Sequence record: PV295200.1
Reading direction: 5' to 3' (one strand)
Length of the DNA stretch: 64,000 nt
Origin: Escherichia phage vB_Eco_BCPEco_001
The stretch's first letter is position 1. Every line of letters begins with the position of its first letter. Positions 4,264 through 53,498 of the stretch are shown here, piece by piece. A program made the position numbers and the translations under genes. The notes under the pieces are model-generated. The model was given only the letters and a program-made list of their open reading frames with translations. It was not told the DNA's origin and searched no databases.

Positions 4264-5814
4264 TTAGTAATGAATTTTAATAATATAGTTTAATGATATA
4301 TTCCATGGTCTAGTTTCATAACCAATTAATCCTTCACGATTAAGTGTACCATGAGCATCTCTCGGTCCACCTAATTCAAATCCATCATTAGTGAAGTATG
4401 AAGCATTATCCCAGTCGGAATATTTTCTAGTTCCAAGATATCCTTGATAAACTGACGCGCCAAATGGACCTTCACTTCTGTTATATTCTCCCCAACCACC
4501 GGCGTGTTTATGGTATGACATTTGTTGTGCCTGGACACCACCAACATGCATTCCGTCACATCCTACACCAAGTCTATCCTTTCCATAACCATCTTGTCCT
4601 CGTTGATTTAAAATATGACCGCCAGTACCGGCTCCTCTGACGAAAAGACCTCGCATATCAGGAATACCAGGATTATTCCAATCACCACCAAATCTTGATC
4701 CAACTACGTTTCTATAATCAGGAAATTGGTCACCTGACACGGTTCCACCGTGACACATAATCCAACCTGGAGGTGCTGAATCACCCGCAAACATCATAAT
4801 AGTTCCAACCGGAACTCGTTCGGACGCATATCTTTCAGTGGCAACAGGTTGATCGCCATTTTTCCACATTCCGCCGCGCGACCAAATTCCGTTTGCTGTA
4901 AGATGGTCTAAATTTAAAGAACCATTAATAGTTTGTCCACCACGCGTATTAATTACATCTGCGTTCCACGCTAATGCTCCAGAACTATCACCTTCAGGGG
5001 CAATACCGGCTTGCGTCGTTAATTTAACTACTCCACGCATAGAACCAGTAGCTCCTCGACCATTTAGTGTTTCACCTGTTACTGCAACATCTCCTAAATT
5101 ACTGTTAATTTCCGATTGTGTTCCTAAACGTATAACACCCTTATATTCTTGTGTTGCAACAGAATTCATAAAGGTATACGGAGAAATTGCATATCCTTCG
5201 CGGAGAGTTCCTTGACGAGTTTGCGCAACAGTTGATAATTGAACCACACCTCTCACAGATTCTGATGCAGTATCTTCGGAAGGAGCTATTTGTGAAATTA
5301 ATTTTATTGCGAGTTTTTGGGTTTTTAGCGGAGTCATCGCCGTAGTATCATCAACACCAGCCAAAGCTGCAGGTGTTGATGATATTTTAATAACCCCGTT
5401 TGATGACTCAGACGAATATCTATTTTGGAACACATCGTCAGTATGGTATTTCAGTTTTTGTGGCGTTATTGATGAATTATTATCTGAGCCTTCTAATGTT
5501 TCTTCATTTGTTGAATAGCGCGTTAAACCATACTTAGTTTCAGTAGCATTTGGATACAATAGTCTTGTTGCTAATGTAGCTGGTGTAACGATTTTAGAAT
5601 TATTTGTTCCATCTAAAACCTCTTGCTCCGATGCAATCATTGCTATTCCTTTAACTTCCATAGTTGCATCAGGAATACCATTTACGCCGATATTACTTAT
5701 TTTTGATAATGCAGACTGCACTGTCGTAACAGTGTCAGGAAAATTCGATCCTACTGGATCGAATTTAACATATTTTGATTCATTTGATACGTGCTGATAT
5801 GTATTGTTACTCAT
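4264..5814 (-). CDS. 12: short tail fibre protein gp12
   Basis: 516 aa ORF immediately upstream of wac and downstream of gp11 (ATGA overlap); Gly-rich C-terminal receptor-binding-like region. Confidence 0.8.
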
Positions 5815-24069: not shown

Positions 24070-24142
24070 TGGGAATTAGCCAAGTTGGTAAGGCATAGCA
24101 CTTTGACTGCTAGATGCAAAGGTTCGAGTCCTTTATTCCCAG
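24070..24142 (+). tRNA. tRNA-Gln (anticodon UUG)
   Basis: Cloverleaf read by eye: acceptor tgggaat/attccca, anticodon loop ctTTGac, T-loop ggttcgagtcc. Confidence 0.8.
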
Positions 24143-24143
24143 C

Positions 24144-24230
24144 GCGAGAATGGTCAAATTGGTAAAGACACAGCACTTAAAATGCTGCGGAATGATTTCC
24201 TTGTGGGTTCGAGTCCCACTTCTCGTACCA
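24144..24230 (+). tRNA. tRNA-Leu (anticodon UAA), long variable arm, CCA encoded
   Basis: Acceptor gcgagaa/ttctcgt, anticodon loop ctTAAaa, T-loop gggttcgagtccc, 3' acca. Confidence 0.8.
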
Positions 24231-24236
24231 AAGTTT

Positions 24237-24308
<72 letters not shown>

Positions 24309-24320
24309 AAATTTAATTTA

Positions 24321-24394
24321 CTTCGTGTAGCTCAGTTTGGTAGAGCGTCTGCTTTGGGAGCAGAATGTCGCAGGTTCAAATCCTGCCGCGGAGA
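24321..24394 (+). tRNA. tRNA-Pro (anticodon UGG)
   Basis: Anticodon stem tctgc/gcaga with loop ttTGGga, T-loop caggttcaaatcctg; acceptor stem has G-U pairs. Confidence 0.75.
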
Positions 24395-24396
24395 CT

Positions 24397-24483
24397 GGAG
24401 GCGTGGCAGAGTGGTTTAATGCACCGGTCTTGAAAACCGGCAGTCGCTCCGGCGACTCATAGGTTCAAATCCTATCGCCTCCG
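24397..24483 (+). tRNA. tRNA-Ser (anticodon UGA), long variable arm
   Basis: Acceptor ggaggcg/cgcctcc, anticodon loop ctTGAaa, variable arm cagtcgctccggcgactc, T-loop aggttcaaatcct. Confidence 0.8.
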
Positions 24484-24490
24484 TAATTTC

Positions 24491-24563
24491 GCTGATTTAG
24501 CTCAGTAGGTAGAGCAACTCACTTGTAATGAGAAGGTCGGCGGTTCGATTCCGTCAATCAGCA
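24491..24563 (+). tRNA. tRNA-Thr (anticodon UGU)
   Basis: Acceptor gctgatt/aatcagc, anticodon loop ctTGTaa, T-loop cggttcgattccg. Confidence 0.8.
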
Positions 24564-24569
24564 TATCAA

Positions 24570-24641
24570 GGCCCTGTAGCTGGAAGGTTCAAGCAAGCGA
24601 CTCATAATCGCCAGATGGTGGTTCAATTCCACCCAGGGCCA
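24570..24641 (+). tRNA. tRNA-Ile (anticodon CAU, presumably modified to read AUA)
   Basis: Acceptor ggccctg/cagggcc, anticodon loop ctCATaa, T-loop tggttcaattcca; T4 is known to carry a CAU-anticodon tRNA-Ile. Confidence 0.75.
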
Positions 24642-24682
24642 TATTTTGAGAACATAAATACTCTTAGAAATAGGAGATATTT

Positions 24683-25348
24683 ATGTTCTATTACATTTAT
24701 AAAATAACAAATAAAATTAATAATAAAATCTATATAGGCGCTCATTCTACCGAAAATTTAGATGATGGATATATGGGTTCTGGTAAATTATTAAAAAGAG
24801 CCCAAGATAAGTATGGTATAGAAAATTTTTCTAAAGAAATATTAGAGTATTTTGACGATAAAACCTCTATGTTTGAGTCAGAAAAGAATATTGTGGCTGA
24901 AGAGTTTTTAAAGCGCCCTGATGTTTATAATTTGAAATTAGGTGGTGAAGGTGGTTGGGACCATTTAAACACTAAAGAATATTTGGATAAAAAGAAAGAA
25001 GCTTCCTTAAAAGGAGCTGCCGCTTTTAAAACCAGATTTGAGAACGACCCAGACCTTAAAGAAAAATATCGTAAAATGGGTTCAGAAAGGTTTAAACAGC
25101 TTTGGGATAATCCTAAGTATAGAGAGAAATTTTTAAATACTAAATCTTTCTTGGGTAAGACCCATACTCCTGAAACTATTAATAAAATGAAAGAATCTCA
25201 CGCCAGAAATAAACACCAACAAGGTGAAAAGAATTCCCAATTTGGTATGATGTGGATTCATTCATTAGATGAAAAAGTTTCTAAACGTATTAAGAAAACT
25301 GACCCAATTCCAGAAGGATGGTTTAAAGGTCGAAAAATGAAATTTTAA
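24683..25348 (+). CDS. segB: GIY-YIG homing endonuclease SegB
   Basis: 221 aa inside the tRNA cluster; N-terminal YYIYKITNKINNKIYIGAHS...DDGYMGSG module. Confidence 0.8.
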   Translation: MFYYIYKITNKINNKIYIGAHSTENLDDGYMGSGKLLKRAQDKYGIENFSKEILEYFDDKTSMFESEKNIVAEEFLKRPDVYNLKLGGEGGWDHLNTKEYLDKKKEASLKGAAAFKTRFENDPDLKEKYRKMGSERFKQLWDNPKYREKFLNTKSFLGKTHTPETINKMKESHARNKHQQGEKNSQFGMMWIHSLDEKVSKRIKKTDPIPEGWFKGRKMKF

Positions 25349-25351
25349 TTA

Positions 25352-25428
<77 letters not shown>

Positions 25429-25439
25429 AACAAGAAGCC

Positions 25440-25790
25440 GGGTCGCTACCGGCAAGTCGTCGGACTGATGTTCCCTGAGTAAGGACTGGCATTAATAAAT
25501 CTTTATGTTTTGTTAATGCCCCCTTATATCACAGCAGAAACGGCGCACCGAATTATCGATTCGAGGAAATATCTTTGCCGTAAGCCGAGTAGCGTTTTTG
25601 ACGGAACGTTCGGATATGGTCAAGATATGGCCTTTTAAAAATATTGAGTAGCGTCAACTGCTTAATAACCGGGTTCGAATCCCGGCGTTTCGTACAAACA
25701 CTTGCCTTAGCAGGTGGAACCCCGACAAGGTTGCCGCAAGGCTCAGTCCCGACCGAAAGGTTGGGGCTTTTTAGTATCTAGGCCTTTCCG
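25440..25790 (+). ncRNA. structured GC-rich non-coding region, probable stable small RNAs (T4 species 1/2, rnaC/rnaD position)
   Basis: No ORF over 60 aa; GC-rich versus flanks; tRNA-like T-arm ccgggttcgaatcccgg; ends with hairpin plus T-run (ggttggggcttttt); follows tRNA-Arg as in T4. Confidence 0.35.
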
Positions 25791-25894
25791 GGCCTCTCTA
25801 GGCATCATTTAGTTTATACCCTTTATAATATATTATCCTACCTTTTAATTGCCCCTCCTGACCCTAGAATTCCCTAAAACTTTTTAAAAATTTT

Positions 25895-30557: not shown

Positions 30558-30703
30558 ATAACATGGGAATAACCTGGACCTCATGATTCTGTGAGGGATT
30601 CCCGCCAACCTGTAATAAGGTCGAGCCCAAGTGCGGTAATGGGTAAATACAGAAATGGACAATTCATGCGCCATGGAATGGCCCAAACCTAGAGAGAACA
30701 AAA

Positions 30704-31243
30704 ATGAGAACATTTTTAACTGGTCCTTATCTATCCCTGATGAATGCTTTTACACACCATTCTGATGCTAGAGTAGAAGAAATTTGTAAAAACGATTATA
30801 TCCTATCATTTGAAGACTTACTTAAACAGTATTGCACACTTCGACTAGATGGTGGACGTCAATCCGGTAAATCAATTGCTGTGACTAACTTTGCTGCTAA
30901 TTGGTTGTATGATGGCGGAACAGTTATTGTTCTTTCTAATACTTCAGCTTACGCTAAAATTTCTGCAAATAACATCAAAAAGGAATTTTCGCGTTATTCT
31001 AATGATGATATACGTTTTCGTTTATTTACTGATTCTGTACGCAGTTTTATTGGTAATAAAGGAAGCAAGTTCAGAGGTTTATCGCTTTCGCGAATTTTGT
31101 ATATAATTGATGAGCCTGTCAAATCTCCTGATATGGATAAGATTTATGATGCTCATATTGACACTGTACAGTACTGCTGCAATAGTAAATGCTGCATTGG
31201 CGGTATTACTCGTCCGCAGTTTTTCGTAATTGGAATGCAATGA
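30704..31243 (+). CDS. small P-loop NTPase-like protein
   Basis: 179 aa; Walker A-like DGGRQSGKS and Walker B-like ILYIIDEP; Cys-rich C-terminus (CCNSKCC). Confidence 0.45.
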   Translation: MRTFLTGPYLSLMNAFTHHSDARVEEICKNDYILSFEDLLKQYCTLRLDGGRQSGKSIAVTNFAANWLYDGGTVIVLSNTSAYAKISANNIKKEFSRYSNDDIRFRLFTDSVRSFIGNKGSKFRGLSLSRILYIIDEPVKSPDMDKIYDAHIDTVQYCCNSKCCIGGITRPQFFVIGMQ

Positions 31244-31569
31244 TGACAGATACGCAACTTTTCGAATATCTTTATTTTTCGCCAAAAACTATTAAAAATA
31301 AATTGGTGAATCATTTTGAAATTTTGGCAAATAACAACGTCTTGAGCGAATTTTATCCCAAGCAATACAAATTACAAAAAGGTGTATTCAAAGGATGCAG
31401 AGTTTTGTGCACTGCTCCTAATGCAAGATTAATGAATAAAATTCCATATTTTACCATGGAATTTATTGATGGACCATTTAAAGGATTAATTACTCAAAGT
31501 TTAATGGCATATGATTCTGAGCCATTTTTAATTAAAGAACAATCTTGGATAAAATTATTTTCTAATTGA
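31240..31569 (+). CDS. hypothetical protein
   Basis: 109 aa from ATG at 31240 (ATGA overlap with upstream gene). Confidence 0.45.
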   Translation: MMTDTQLFEYLYFSPKTIKNKLVNHFEILANNNVLSEFYPKQYKLQKGVFKGCRVLCTAPNARLMNKIPYFTMEFIDGPFKGLITQSLMAYDSEPFLIKEQSWIKLFSN

Positions 31570-31575
31570 GGTTAT

Positions 31576-31938
31576 ATGAAAGCATATCAAATTCTTGAAG
31601 GCACACATAAAGGTACTATTTATTTTGAAGATGGTATTCAAGCACGAATTATTGTCTCTAAAACCTTTAAAGAGGACTCTTTTGTAGACCCAGAAATTTT
31701 CTATGGTTTGCATGCCCGTGAAATTGAAATTGAGCAACAGCCTACAGTTAAAATTGAAGGTGGTCAACACCTGAACGTTAACGTTCTGCGTCGTGAAACT
31801 CTGGAAGATGCAGTTAAGCATCCGGAAAAATATCCGCAGCTGACCATCCGTGTATCCGGTTATGCAGTTCGCTTTAACTCTCTGACTCCGGAACAGCAGC
31901 GCGACGTTATCGCTCGTACCTTTACCGAGAGTTTGTAA
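31576..31938 (+). CDS. autonomous glycyl radical cofactor (GrcA/YfiD-like) protein
   Basis: 120 aa; C-terminal about 64 residues ([60 protein letters not shown]) carry the glycyl radical motif RVSGY and match E. coli GrcA as recalled; this part uses GC-rich host-like codons. Confidence 0.8.
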
Positions 31939-32159
31939 TGGCAAAGATAATTATTGAAGGTTCTGAAGATGTGCTAAATGCTTTCGCCGAGTGGTTTAGT
32001 AATTCAGGCGAACAGCAATTTAATGAAGCCTGGAATATGGGTGATATTGATGGAATTTATCCTACGACAGAAATTTCTGTTCAGGGATATGGCATTCATG
32101 AACCTATTCGTTTAGTTGAATACGATTTATGCACTGGTGAGGAAGTCAAATATGATTGA
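31938..32159 (+). CDS. hypothetical acidic protein
   Basis: 73 aa ORF, ATGG overlap with upstream stop. Confidence 0.45.
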   Translation: MAKIIIEGSEDVLNAFAEWFSNSGEQQFNEAWNMGDIDGIYPTTEISVQGYGIHEPIRLVEYDLCTGEEVKYD

Positions 32160-32418
32160 AGATATTAAGGGTTATAAGCCACATACTGAAGAGAAAATCG
32201 GTAAAGTGAATGCTATCAAAGATGCTGAAGTTCGTTTAGGACTTATCTTTGACGCTTTATATGACGAATTCTGGGAAGCACTAGATAATTGTGAAGACTA
32301 TGAATTCGCGAAGAATTATGCTGAAAGCCTCGATCAGTTAGCTATTGCTAAAACGAAACTCAAAGAAGCCAGTATGTGGGCTTGTCGTGCTGTGTTCCAA
32401 CCAGAGGAAAAATACTAA
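32152..32418 (+). CDS. hypothetical acidic protein
   Basis: 88 aa from ATG at 32152 with GAGGAAG RBS. Confidence 0.45.
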
Positions 32419-32696
32419 TGGCTCAATTAAGCGCAGGGTTTGGTTATGAGTATTATACTGCCCCTCGTCGTGTGTCTGCTGCTCCTAAGAAAATTCAAAG
32501 TCTTGATGATTTCCAGGAAGTAGTCCGTAAAGCTTTCCAGGACTATGCACGTTATCTTAAAGAAGATTCACAGGACTGTCTCGAAGAAGATGAAATTGCT
32601 TATTATGAGCAGCGTCTTGAACAGCTTAAAAACTTACATGAGGTCCGTGCAGAAGTTTCAAAGTCTATGAATAAATTGATTAGATTTAAAGAATAA
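32418..32696 (+). CDS. hypothetical protein
   Basis: 92 aa from ATG at 32418 ([16 protein letters not shown]...), overlaps upstream stop. Confidence 0.45.
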
Positions 32697-50105: not shown

Positions 50106-50579
50106 ATGTTATTGACTGGCAAATTATATAAAGAAGAAAAACAGAAATTTTATGATGCACAAAACGGTAAATGCTTAATTTGCCAACGTGAATTAAATCC
50201 TGATGTTCAAGCTAATCACCTCGATCATGACCATGAATTAAATGGACCAAAAGCAGGAAAGGTACGTGGATTGCTTTGTAATCTCTGCAATGCTGCAGAA
50301 GGTCAAATGAAGCACAAATTTAATCGTTCTGGCTTAAAGGGACAAGGTGTTGATTATCTTGAATGGTTAGAAAATTTACTTACTTACTTAAAATCCGATT
50401 ACACCCAAAATAATATTCACCCTAACTTTGTTGGAGATAAATCAAAGGAATTTTCTCGTTTAGGAAAAGAGGAAATGATGGCTGAGATGCTTCAAAGAGG
50501 ATTTGAATATAATGAATCTGACACTAAAACACAATTAATAGCTTCATTTAAGAAGCAGCTTAGAAAGAGTTTAAAATGA
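50106..50579 (+). CDS. 49: endonuclease VII (Holliday junction resolvase)
   Basis: 157 aa; zinc motif CLICQRELNPDVQANHLDHDHELNG...CNLCN. Confidence 0.9.
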   Translation: MLLTGKLYKEEKQKFYDAQNGKCLICQRELNPDVQANHLDHDHELNGPKAGKVRGLLCNLCNAAEGQMKHKFNRSGLKGQGVDYLEWLENLLTYLKSDYTQNNIHPNFVGDKSKEFSRLGKEEMMAEMLQRGFEYNESDTKTQLIASFKKQLRKSLK

Positions 50580-52393
50580 CAATTGAAAAAGAAATTGAAG
50601 GATTGATTCATAAAACTAATAAAGACCTTTTGAACGAGAATGCTAATAAAGATTCTCGTGTTTTTCCAACTCAACGGGACCTTATGGCTGGTATTGTGTC
50701 TAAGCACATTGCCAAAAATATGGTCCCGTCTTTTATTATGAAAGCGCATGAAAGCGGAATTATTCATTTCCATGATATTGATTATTCCCCTGCTCTTCCA
50801 TTTACTAATTGCTGTTTAGTAGATTTAAAAGGAATGCTTGAGAACGGATTTAAGCTCGGTAATGCACAGATTGAAACTCCTAAATCAATCGGTGTTGCTA
50901 CTGCAATTATGGCACAAATTACTGCGCAAGTTGCTTCCCATCAATATGGCGGAACGACTTTTGCGAATGTAGATAAAGTACTTTCTCCTTATGTTAAACG
51001 CACCTATGCAAAACATATCGAGGACGCAGAAAAATGGCAAATCGCTGATGCACTGAATTATGCTCAATCTAAAACAGAAAAAGATGTATACGATGCATTC
51101 CAAGCTTATGAATATGAAGTAAATACTCTCTTTAGTTCAAACGGACAAACGCCTTTTGTAACAATTACATTTGGTACGGGAACTGACTGGACTGAACGAA
51201 TGATTCAGAAAGCAATTCTGAAAAATCGTATTAAAGGTCTTGGTCGTGATGGGATAACTCCTATTTTCCCTAAGCTTGTTATGTTTGTTGAAGAAGGTGT
51301 TAATCTTTATAAAGACGATCCGAACTATGATATTAAGCAGCTTGCTCTAGAGTGTGCAAGCAAAAGAATGTATCCTGATATTATTTCAGCTAAGAACAAT
51401 AAAGCTATCACTGGTTCATCTATTCCTGTTTCTCCAATGGGTTGCCGTAGTTTCTTGAGCGTATGGAAAGATTCGACCGGTAATGAAATTCTTGATGGAC
51501 GTAATAATCTTGGTGTTGTAACACTGAATCTTCCTCGCATCGCGTTAGATTCTTATATTGGAACACAGTTCAATGAACAGAAATTTGTTGAATTATTCAA
51601 TGAACGAATGGATTTATGTTTTGAAGCTTTGATGTGTAGAATTAGTTCCTTAAAAGGAGTTAAAGCGACTGTTGCTCCTATTCTTTACCAAGAAGGTGCA
51701 TTCGGGGTTCGTCTTAAACCTGATGACGATATAATTGAGTTATTTAAAAATGGTAGAAGTTCAGTGTCCCTAGGATACATTGGTATTCACGAATTGAATA
51801 TTCTTGTCGGTCGTGATATTGGACGAGAAATTTTAACTAAAATGAATGCTCATCTTAAACAGTGGACTGAAAGAACCGGATTTGCTTTTAGTTTATATTC
51901 GACTCCTGCTGAAAACCTTTGTTATCGCTTCTGTAAACTCGATACAGAAAAATATGGAAGTGTAAAAGATGTTACCGATAAAGGTTGGTACACTAACAGT
52001 TTCCATGTTTCAGTAGAAGAAAATATTACTCCGTTTGAAAAGATTTCCCGCGAAGCACCATATCATTTCATTGCGACAGGTGGTCACATTTCTTATGTTG
52101 AACTTCCTGATATGAAAAATAACTTAAAAGGTCTTGAGGCCGTGTGGGATTATGCTGCACAACATTTAGATTATTTTGGTGTTAATATGCCAGTAGATAA
52201 ATGTTTTACATGCGGAAGTACCCATGAAATGACTCCTACTGAAAACGGATTTGTTTGTTCTATTTGTGGAGAAACTGATCCTAAAAAGATGAATACCATA
52301 AGAAGAACATGCGGCTATCTTGGAACTCCTAGCGTTGTTCCATGGAATTTAGGTAAAATGAAAGAAATGGTAAAACGAGTAAAACATGCATAG
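50576..52393 (+). CDS. nrdD: anaerobic ribonucleoside-triphosphate reductase (class III), uninterrupted
   Basis: 605 aa continuous ORF; C-terminal glycyl radical motif RRTCGYLG and Cys zinc ribbon CFTCGS...CSICG. Confidence 0.9.
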   Translation: MTIEKEIEGLIHKTNKDLLNENANKDSRVFPTQRDLMAGIVSKHIAKNMVPSFIMKAHESGIIHFHDIDYSPALPFTNCCLVDLKGMLENGFKLGNAQIETPKSIGVATAIMAQITAQVASHQYGGTTFANVDKVLSPYVKRTYAKHIEDAEKWQIADALNYAQSKTEKDVYDAFQAYEYEVNTLFSSNGQTPFVTITFGTGTDWTERMIQKAILKNRIKGLGRDGITPIFPKLVMFVEEGVNLYKDDPNYDIKQLALECASKRMYPDIISAKNNKAITGSSIPVSPMGCRSFLSVWKDSTGNEILDGRNNLGVVTLNLPRIALDSYIGTQFNEQKFVELFNERMDLCFEALMCRISSLKGVKATVAPILYQEGAFGVRLKPDDDIIELFKNGRSSVSLGYIGIHELNILVGRDIGREILTKMNAHLKQWTERTGFAFSLYSTPAENLCYRFCKLDTEKYGSVKDVTDKGWYTNSFHVSVEENITPFEKISREAPYHFIATGGHISYVELPDMKNNLKGLEAVWDYAAQHLDYFGVNMPVDKCFTCGSTHEMTPTENGFVCSICGETDPKKMNTIRRTCGYLGTPSVVPWNLGKMKEMVKRVKHA

Positions 52394-52405: not shown

Positions 52406-53038
52406 ATGAATTATGACAGAATCTATTCAAATCTAGTTAATTCTGCTGAACACCCATCTAAGCCCCGTCAAACTAAAGCCGGGTATGAACTTCATCATAT
52501 AATTCCAAGAAGCATGGGTGGTCCAGATGATTTAGACAACTTAGTATTTTTAACTTATAAGGCCCACTATACTGCTCATCATTTATTGGCTAAAATATAT
52601 GGTGGAAAGATGTATGATGCATATTGGATAATGAGTAATAGTAAGCATAGAAAAGTTACTTCTTCACAATACGCGTATGCAAAAGCTAAGAAATTTGAAA
52701 ATCAGCGTGGCGCAAAAAGAAGCGATAAAACTAAGAAGCTAATGAGCATAGCTAGGTCTAAAGTAACTCTTCCTGATGATTTTGGAAAAAGGATATCTGA
52801 TGGGCTAACAGGAAGAACTTTGTCTACTAGTCATAAAGAGCATATCAAAAATAGTTCTAGAAATCGCTTTAACACCAAAACGGTTATTGGCTATTCACCA
52901 GACGGAAATACAATAGAACTAACTGGAGCAACTGAAATAAGAAATGCAGGATTTTTTCATTCTGCTGTTTATAAATGTTGCAAAGGAATTCAATCTATTC
53001 ATAAGGGATATACTTGGAAATATAAAGATGAATTATGA
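52406..53038 (+). CDS. HNH homing endonuclease
   Basis: 210 aa; HNH motif ELHHIIPRSMGGPDDLDNLVFLTYKAHYTAHH; between nrdD and nrdG, overlapping the nrdG start by 11 nt. Confidence 0.7.
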   Translation: MNYDRIYSNLVNSAEHPSKPRQTKAGYELHHIIPRSMGGPDDLDNLVFLTYKAHYTAHHLLAKIYGGKMYDAYWIMSNSKHRKVTSSQYAYAKAKKFENQRGAKRSDKTKKLMSIARSKVTLPDDFGKRISDGLTGRTLSTSHKEHIKNSSRNRFNTKTVIGYSPDGNTIELTGATEIRNAGFFHSAVYKCCKGIQSIHKGYTWKYKDEL

Positions 53039-53498
53039 TAGAATATACCCGTGCTGCTTTGTTAATGGTCCTGGATGCAGGGTCGTTCTCTTCGTCACTG
53101 GATGTTTGCATAAATGCGAAGGTTGTTATAATCGTAGTACTTGGAATGCTCGTAACGGACAGTTATTCACTATGAATACCGTTAAAGAACTTGCGTCCCA
53201 TTTAAGCAAATCGTATATCCAAGGCCTTACCTTAACCGGTGGTGACCCACTTTATCCACAGAACCGAGAAGAGATTTCAAATTTAGTTTCTTGGGTTAAA
53301 GCAAGATTTCCGGAGAAAGATATCTGGTTGTGGACAGGATATAAGTTTGAAGATATTAAACAGCTAGAAATGCTTAAATATGTTGATGTTATTATTGATG
53401 GGAAGTATGAGAAAAATCTTCCGACTAAAAAGCTGTGGCGAGGATCAGATAATCAGCGACTTTGGTCAAATACCGATGGGGTGTGGAAACATGATTAA
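53028..53498 (+). CDS. nrdG: anaerobic ribonucleotide reductase activating protein (radical SAM)
   Basis: 156 aa from ATG at 53028; CxxxCxxC-type cluster GCLHKCEGCYN. Confidence 0.85.
   Translation: MNYDRIYPCCFVNGPGCRVVLFVTGCLHKCEGCYNRSTWNARNGQLFTMNTVKELASHLSKSYIQGLTLTGGDPLYPQNREEISNLVSWVKARFPEKDIWLWTGYKFEDIKQLEMLKYVDVIIDGKYEKNLPTKKLWRGSDNQRLWSNTDGVWKHD

Follow-up and report, generated by a model that had tools for sequence, protein, structure and literature searches.

Host grcA sequence inside a resident T4-type phage gene: a probable gene-conversion tract in vs.6 of Escherichia phage vB_Eco_BCPEco_001

How does a virulent phage come to carry, inside one of its own genes, a run of DNA that reads letter for letter like the chromosome of its host? 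The question is raised by an open reading frame (ORF) for 120 amino acids (aa) at positions 31576-31938 of a 64,000-nucleotide (nt) stretch of Escherichia phage vB_Eco_BCPEco_001 (PV295200.1); this whole stretch, a segment of a Tequatrovirus (T4-type) genome, is called the window here. An original prediction, made from the letters alone, had seen in this frame a recently captured 3' part of host grcA, the gene of the glycyl-radical cofactor GrcA (YfiD), joined to an N-terminus peculiar to the phage. The answer favoured here, with a probability of roughly 0.8, keeps the recent host DNA and gives it a different setting: the frame is vs.6, which appears to be a long-resident, full-length phage homologue of GrcA and a spare part for pyruvate formate-lyase (PFL), and the segment encoding its glycyl-radical domain would have been overwritten by host grcA via gene conversion, with a parallel event in phages of Klebsiella. 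The parts of the gene on which the argument turns are these:

31576-31938, plus strand: vs.6 (Y06I) coding sequence, a GrcA homologue and phage autonomous glycyl-radical cofactor of 120 aa (from the ORF, profile matches and annotated relatives)
31576-31753, plus strand: phage-type 5' part, codons 1-59 plus 1 nt, GC content 0.33 and 0.20 at third codon positions (GC3), encoding a diverged homologue of the GrcA N-terminus (from hhalign and nucleotide identity)
31754-31925, plus strand: host-derived tract of 172 nt, equal to E. coli grcA nt 200-371, encoding the glycyl-radical domain homologous to PflB 697-759 (from blastn, GC content and diagnostic sites)
31849-31863, plus strand: glycyl-radical motif RVSGY, residues 92-96 (from the sequence and alignments to GrcA and PflB)
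31858-31860, plus strand: GGT codon of Gly95, counterpart of GrcA G102 and PflB G734 (from the same alignments)
31926-31938, plus strand: phage-type 3' end, ACC GAG AGT TTG TAA, where E. coli has ACT GAA AGC CTG (from alignments)

The gene itself is vs.6 (Y06I) of Tequatrovirus and is already known. In the annotation of Shigella phage vB_SsoM_113 the order is denV, vs.8, vs.7, vs.6, vs.5, vs.4, vs.3, regB, and the window ORF takes the place of vs.6; its product equals T4 Vs.6/Y06I at 119 of 120 residues, with Q54P as the sole difference, so that the T4 homologue which the original prediction cited as a spare part for oxygen-damaged PFL is in fact the same gene. RefSeq phage records name the product GrcA, and the profile matches agree: phrog_1209 spans the full length (5.7e-63), TIGR04365 GrcA is the top NCBIfam family (E 1.2e-45, 154.9 bits) and Pfam Gly_radical covers residues 60-101 (2.5e-18), while in the PDB residues 22-120 match E. 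coli GrcA 6OWR (9e-42) and the last 63 residues of PflB are matched as well (5e-26). The 1,501 bases around the gene (31000-32500) are 100% identical to those of Shigella phages SHFML-11 and vB_Shso_BCPShso_001 and show ~98% identity with many T4-like phages.

The case for host DNA rests first of all on nucleotide identity, for which 5,426 complete genomes served as the E. coli comparison set. A blastn search with vs.6 found grcA in all 5,426, over gene nt 179-363 at 97.8% and with nothing matched 5' of that; aligned with E. coli grcA, the phage gene shows an unbroken 172-nt run (31754-31925) and then four synonymous differences within its final 13 nt. The tract is reproduced at 172/172 in the top-ranked half of a sampled E. 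coli listing and at 171/172 in lower-ranked genomes, a K-12-type strain among them, and it reaches at least 99% in 5,156 of the 5,426 genomes; one E. coli allele taken for comparison shows a CGT/CGC polymorphism against it. In the protein alignment, vs.6 residues 61-120 equal E. coli GrcA residues 68-127 (100%), RVSGY included, in line with the original prediction. Composition points the same way, and here too the first impression of a GC-rich segment with E. coli-type codons was sound: the tract has a GC content of 0.494 where the window averages 0.347 (z = 3.3, within the highest 0.46% of 172-nt windows, the other equally GC-rich ones being a tRNA-cluster group plus 4711-4911 and 25577-25842), GC3 is 0.42 as opposed to 0.20 in the N-terminal part, and all five leucine codons are CTG and all three proline codons CCG, choices that make up 5% and 15%, respectively, in the window ORFs. 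The limits originally given to the host-like DNA, about 31,740-31,938, need trimming at both ends, since they began ~14 nt too early and took in a last 13 nt that are not host-identical. When the whole window was compared in three pieces with the same genomes by megablast, no host match was returned besides the grcA tract and a weak 80% echo of pflB.

Is transfer needed at all to explain such identity? The encoded domain is extremely conserved, with a nonsynonymous difference (pN) of ~0 across all lineages, and one could imagine that extreme purifying selection or codon-level convergence keeps phage and host DNA alike. Phages that carry the same or nearly the same domain argue otherwise, their synonymous divergence (dS) from the hosts being saturated (1.9 and above): Enterobacter phage HK6 encodes, over residues 61-119, the residues of E. 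coli GrcA and differs in the last residue only, yet matches at 143/170 nt with a dS of 1.9, and in Slopekvirus compared with K. pneumoniae the synonymous sites are saturated at a pN of 0. Taken from HK6, protein conservation alone yields ~84% nucleotide identity, not 100%, and the 172/172 found here stands well above that level, as the GC content of the tract stands apart from that of the flanking phage DNA. Furthermore, the phage tract equals E. coli even at CAA, AAG and GTA, which are non-preferred codons in E. coli, and the Klebsiella phages considered below carry Klebsiella-specific synonymous states at 19 of 20 sites. Identity without transfer is thus hardly credible. Less credible still is an artefact of assembly or contamination, in which host reads were merged into a phage contig: perfect identity to host DNA is all that speaks for it, and against it stand the equal junctions in 638 separately deposited phage records, T4 AF158101 among them, and a vs.6 reading frame that is intact and translationally coupled to vs.5. 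As to the donor, Tequatrovirus differs from E. coli by a dS of 0.07, which falls entirely within the last four codons, whereas E. coli differs from Citrobacter by 0.36, from Klebsiella by 0.56 and from Salmonella by 1.0; this points to Escherichia itself. Judged by these comparisons, the GC-rich 3' segment was acquired from the host very recently, being far nearer to the grcA of E. coli than to that of Citrobacter, Salmonella or Klebsiella.

If the tract came from the host, did it arrive as the end of a gene, caught by a phage ORF that had nothing to do with GrcA? This is what recent capture of the 3' part of grcA would mean: illegitimate recombination that fused an unrelated phage N-terminus to a C-terminus from the host, for which the sharp shift in GC content and identity near 31754 would be a natural sign, as would the finding that in megablast E. 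coli grcA matches no phage upstream of about nt 200. The 48 nt directly 5' of the tract indeed have only ~50% nucleotide identity to E. coli or Klebsiella grcA. The proteins tell a different story, however, because in the phage proteins the first 60 residues can be aligned with the first 67 of bacterial GrcA, at an identity of ~27-36%; hhalign, run with 22 phage against 14 bacterial N-terminal parts, joins 62 columns from the first residue onwards (probability 97.9%, E 5e-13), and blastp and phmmer begin their GrcA alignments at vs.6 residue 22. The belief that the N-terminal 55 residues are phage-specific has therefore to be given up: they are homologous to the N-terminus of GrcA. Between Tequatrovirus and Mosigvirus the N-terminal part has a ratio of nonsynonymous to synonymous difference (pN/pS) of ~0.15, which indicates purifying selection on it.

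The other side of the tract is no less telling. The last four codons of vs.6 are of phage type, and the choices GAG and AGT recur in distant, unconverted phage homologues; beyond the stop codon no homology to the E. coli locus was found. Homologues occur in 1,588 phage records, which range over Tevenvirinae, Slopekvirus, Karamvirus, Aeromonas and Vibrio Straboviridae, T5-like Demerecviridae and jumbo Yersinia phages; the full-length architecture is common to these homologues, in distant phages without any host-identical DNA. Compared with 80 grcA genes from enterobacteria and Pasteurellaceae, the DNA of the glycyl domain reaches only 72-84% identity in most of them, and the GC jump is absent. 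The gene is also listed among the conserved ORFs of T4-like genomes (PMC1524935). Taken together, the N-terminal homology, the full-length distant homologues and the phage-type last codons argue that an internal segment was replaced in a resident homologue and that no gene end was captured. Of the earlier proposal, recent host DNA stands and terminal capture gives way to an internal patch in an older phage gene; capture by an unrelated ORF is distinctly improbable.

Why should the patch stop short of the stop codon? The vs.6 TAA overlaps the ATG of vs.5 (TAATG, 31936-31940), and the annotation of Klebsiella phage Matisse makes the corresponding GAG codon the ribosome-binding site of the next gene, so the stretch 31926-31938 probably holds the ribosome-binding site of vs.5. 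The phage-type GAG may have been kept for this role, a weak suggestion given that the codon is GAA in T4. Where the tract ends on its 3' side varies among phages in any case: OES_C-2 is E. coli-like to the stop codon, T4 has two differences, the window has four, and UFV-AREG1 has seven within the last 20 nt. T4 Vs.6, the same gene in the same place between vs.7 and vs.5 downstream of denV and with the same E. coli-identical tract, thus differs from the window in that its host-identical tract ends two codons later (ACT GAA in T4, ACC GAG in the window).

The patch is not peculiar to this phage, and its wider distribution holds the second line of evidence. E. coli grcA has matches in 752 phage records, 638 of them at 95-99.5%; a sampled listing of these 638 contains Tequatrovirus and Mosigvirus, some of them isolates with Shigella or Yersinia in their names, and the T4 reference AF158101 is one of them (181/183 to E. 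coli grcA). The phage match starts at grcA nt 200 in 37 of the 40 records listed, and no phage record matches at least 80% of grcA. With K. pneumoniae grcA as the query, 106 phage records match at 95-98.2% from nt 202 to about 369 (nt 202 is the start in 24 of the 25 listed), and the phages concerned are phages of Klebsiella such as KPV15, KP17, Nispero and the 15882 series, those of the KPV15 type being Jiaodavirus. The tract of KPV15 (L123) equals K. pneumoniae grcA at 166/170 positions and E. coli at 148/170, with a 140-nt perfect run, and its GC content is 0.57 against 0.36 directly upstream. Twenty sites in the tract separate E. coli from K. pneumoniae; at all 20 the E. coli base is present in the window phage, T4 and OES_C-2, whereas KPV15 is Klebsiella-type at 19 and departs only at the last site, which lies at the patch edge. 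Unconverted genera show mixed bases at the 20 sites. In the encoded protein the Klebsiella-type tract differs from the E. coli type by E76L and K80E (vs.6 numbering). Salmonella grcA, searched against all phage records, gave no match above 84%, and so no Salmonella-type patch.

Three observations stand beside these. The KPV15 homologue of vs.6 (L123:601-962) is frameshifted at about codon 43 in the deposited sequence, as by a sequencing error or in a pseudogene. In Jiaodavirus KP179 (L086:481-663) the patch has a GC content of 0.54. Its identity to the grcA of K. pneumoniae or K. aerogenes is only 91%, none of 80 further species exceeds 88%, and at the 20 diagnostic sites it is Klebsiella-type at 14, E. 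coli-type at four and neither at two; it is either older or from an unsampled donor. Finally, a 19-kb IMG/VR contig (L126) has a GrcA-like block 91% identical to Yersinia artesiana grcA without an upstream drop in GC content, and may represent either a piece of a host genome or one more phage copy of host type.

How many exchanges with the host does this pattern call for? It is conceivable that there was one host-to-phage event per host genus, followed by spread from phage to phage among co-infecting T-even phages, and that the patch is nearly unchanged because it is too young to have changed. The 5' junction is identical in the matching records listed; Tequatrovirus flanks are ~96% alike among themselves, so that few substitutions are expected in 170 nt; and Mosigvirus tracts carry 3-10 scattered changes per 183-nt block, with a large share of G/C to A/T changes, which is what an ageing insert would show. 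Where Mosigvirus departs from E. coli, the difference is mostly a G/C to A/T transition to a base that outgroup phages have as well, and this fits ancestral retention and new AT-biased mutation alike. On the other side, the identity of Tequatrovirus to Mosigvirus is 74% in the 290-nt flanks and 89% (dS 0.45) in the N-terminal part of vs.6, whereas in the tract it is 97.4% (dS 0.17); being far less diverged than its surroundings, the patch is younger than the split of the two genera, which calls for at least one later transfer. The phages also differ in their 3' edges. A further hint comes from the CGT/CGC single-nucleotide polymorphism (SNP) of E. coli, which is polymorphic in phages as well (the C allele in O157 typing phage 13 and IMG/VR L100); as a sign of exchange it is suggestive only, for L102 has G at the same site, which makes repeated mutation possible. 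A search for an E. coli allele with all L100 variants gave 98.8% at best, with the CGC SNP alone in common, so that sharing of a multi-site haplotype was not demonstrated. A single event per genus with later spread among phages is therefore possible, if on balance doubtful.

The favoured reading, replacement of an internal segment by gene conversion, would then run as follows. Codons 1-59 and the last four codons are old, AT-rich phage sequence, and the 172 nt between them were overwritten by E. coli grcA, presumably when, during infection, the phage gene underwent homologous recombination (gene conversion) with host grcA DNA. The 5' edge of the tract would be set where phage-host similarity collapses; its 3' edge falls within the last ~0-25 nt and would be limited by the end of the gene, past whose stop codon host homology ceases. 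In the Klebsiella-infecting Jiaodaviruses a separate replacement from a Klebsiella donor took place.

What might such a gene do for the phage? For T4 Y06I, the account given in PMC8683613 relates that the PFL-activating enzyme (PFL-AE) installs a glycyl radical in vitro and that the protein forms a complex with O2-cleaved PflB, whose activity is restored (Wagner et al. 2001, BBRC 285:456). The window protein, one residue away from T4 Y06I, would be expected to have the same PFL-repair activity. Like members of the GrcA family (TIGR04365, InterPro IPR011140; about 14 kDa), it is a small stand-alone protein, a 120-aa ORF between vs.7 and vs.5, and glycyl-radical enzymes, with their catalytic 10-stranded barrel, are matched only over their last ~60 residues. 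PflB is a 760-aa enzyme whose C-terminal domain (697-759) is the segment mimicked by vs.6 and GrcA (~80% nucleotide identity to the tract); vs.6, without the catalytic barrel, is unable to act alone. E. coli GrcA (nuclear magnetic resonance structure 6OWR) is likewise a small stand-alone glycyl-radical protein and, like T4 Y06I, repairs O2-cleaved PflB in vitro; its C-terminal 60 residues are identical to those of vs.6 and its N-terminal part is homologous. Unlike it, vs.6 is 7 residues shorter, has an N-terminal half that is ~30% identical and AT-rich, and lies in an early-gene cluster of a virulent phage, not beside ung.

During infection, host PflA would place the radical on Gly95 of the RVSGY loop, and vs.6 would dock on host PFL molecules whose C-terminal glycyl-radical domain had been cut off by O2, thereby restoring catalysis. 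Since T4 halts host gene expression, PflB or GrcA destroyed by oxygen would be irreplaceable, and a spare part made by the phage might sustain the output of acetyl-CoA, ATP and formate during infection in the micro-oxic gut. Formate from repaired PFL might in turn feed the phage's own anaerobic ribonucleotide reductase, NrdD, as reductant; the class III ribonucleotide reductase of T4 has formate as its electron donor (PMC4390871).

Is NrdD perhaps the partner itself? Its gene lies in the same window, 18.6 kb downstream of vs.6 (about 19 kb in the original prediction, which hinted at such a partnership):

50576-52393, plus strand: anaerobic ribonucleotide reductase NrdD, a glycyl-radical enzyme (Pfam NRDD, 1.5e-171)

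It could be envisaged that vs.6 serves phage NrdD, either as a spare domain for O2-cleaved NrdD or after activation by NrdG, in place of repairing host PFL. NrdD is, after all, a glycyl-radical enzyme too, a role in nucleotide metabolism was suggested by Nolan et al. 2006 (PMC1524935), and in Aeromonas phage Ah1 the vs.6 homologue (L185:4001-4384) sits between nrdG and nrdC in the cluster nrdB-nrdD-nrdG-vs.6-nrdC-nrdH, its start overlapping the nrdG stop. Similarity, though, is lacking: blastp of vs.6 against the window NrdD gave nothing significant (E 2.4), the glycyl motif of NrdD reads RRTCGYLG, and among PDB matches of vs.6 at E <= 0.001 there is no NrdD chain, while the vs.6 domain is identical to that of GrcA, PflB 697-759 is matched at 5e-26 and cleaved PFL was restored by Y06I in vitro. 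The arrangement in Ah1 is equally well explained by PFL repair that secures formate for NrdD, which would make sense of the synteny without NrdD as a repair target. On sequence grounds NrdD is thus not likely to be that target, and the whole alternative is a poor prospect.

Repair of host PFL by a converted vs.6 is the reading retained, and several points weigh against it. The protein misses the curated equivalog cut-off of TIGR04365 (170 bits), scoring 154.9 where E. coli GrcA scores 233.9; it falls below because its N-terminus has diverged, and it is best filed as a phage-type GrcA homologue (phrog_1209) and not as a strict equivalog. No in vivo role of vs.6 in phage growth is documented in the literature searched, the benefit to the phage and the link from formate to NrdD are suppositions, and the synteny in Ah1 would also fit a tie to the anaerobic reductase closer than the one proposed here. 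The recombination mechanism is read from sequence patterns only; T4, moreover, degrades host DNA, and the 3' edge offers only a very short stretch of homology. For Tequatrovirus taken by itself, one conversion in a common ancestor with few changes since might be enough, and recombination of phage with phage, in place of separate host events, could have carried the E. coli-type patch across from one of the genera Tequatrovirus and Mosigvirus to the other. Nor is the tracking of hosts universal, a Salmonella-type patch having been found in no phage.

Could conversion be a continuing process? A further-reaching idea, held tentatively and at somewhat short of even odds, is that the glycyl-domain segment of vs.6 acts as a standing interface for recombination of virulent T-even phages with the host chromosome, repeatedly re-converted by the grcA allele of the current host. 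If so, ~170 bp of perfect homology would permit conversion again and again, and vs.6 would evolve in concert with host GrcA, PFL and PFL-AE; phages of E. coli would stay E. coli-type and those of Klebsiella Klebsiella-type, despite mutation pressure towards AT. It would also be, as far as the literature searched goes, the first continuing host-to-phage gene conversion described in the T4 model system.

Two small elements belong to the immediate surroundings of the tract:

31568-31571, plus strand: Shine-Dalgarno-like GAGG, 4 nt 5' of the vs.6 ATG and overlapping the vs.7 stop codon at 31567-31569 (read from the sequence; putative role)
31723-31734, plus strand: tandem hexamer GAAATT x2, encoding EIEI, in the linker 5' of the tract (copy number variable among relatives)

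The number of EI units is one fewer in OES_C-2 (357-nt gene) and one more in VIPECOOM02 (369-nt gene). A scan for promoters and terminators around vs.6 gave no higher count than in shuffled sequence, and an Rfam scan of the window returned tRNAs only. Elsewhere in the window, the 146-nt gap between denV and vs.8 (30558-30703) is locally GC-rich (0.44-0.49 in 100-nt windows), with no Rfam match and no convincing promoter or terminator, and the tRNA cluster at 24070-25428 has eight genes (Gln, Leu, Gly, Pro, Ser, Thr, a Met/Ile-type CAT and Arg), its part at 24275-24643 matching the grcA patch in GC content. Between nrdD and the apparent nrdG (~53028-53498) there is a 210-aa ORF (52406-53038) in which, by eye only, an HNH-like motif can be made out (HHIIPRSMGG...DNLVFL...HYTAHH) and whose first seven residues, MNYDRIY, repeat those at the likely true nrdG start (MNYDRIYPCCFVNGPGC...); it looks like a free-standing homing endonuclease inserted together with a duplicated nrdG 5' end.

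What, then, is new? The vs.6 gene and its activity are already known, and the footprint of gene conversion from host to phage is apparently undescribed: neither the grcA patch nor its host-genus specificity was found described in the literature searched, a prior mention in subscription journals being possible. The nearest evolutionary precedent would seem to be intragenic recombination between host and phage in cyanophage psbA (PMC1484495). Sullivan and co-workers are said to have described in 2006 how the phage copies of the host genes psbA and psbD exchange segments and form mosaics with GC discontinuities. Unlike psbA and psbD, the present case concerns an enterobacterial T-even phage, and the patch is ~170 nt long, perfectly delimited and specific to the host genus.

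These comparisons bear on what T-even phages may take from their hosts. Such phages have modified cytosine and degrade the DNA of the host; vs.6 would be a clean case in which a virulent, host-DNA-degrading phage still copies host chromosomal sequence by homologous exchange, with precise edges and in two host genera. As a natural marker, the patch may also tell on which host genus a T-even lineage has recently multiplied: Tequatrovirus and Mosigvirus, isolates named after Yersinia, Salmonella and Shigella among them, have the E. coli type, and Jiaodavirus has the Klebsiella type. Lastly, the suggested chain, from PFL repair through formate to the reductant of NrdD, could explain why vs.6 is conserved in T4-like and T5-like phages of gut bacteria and why, in Ah1, it lies in the nrd cluster.

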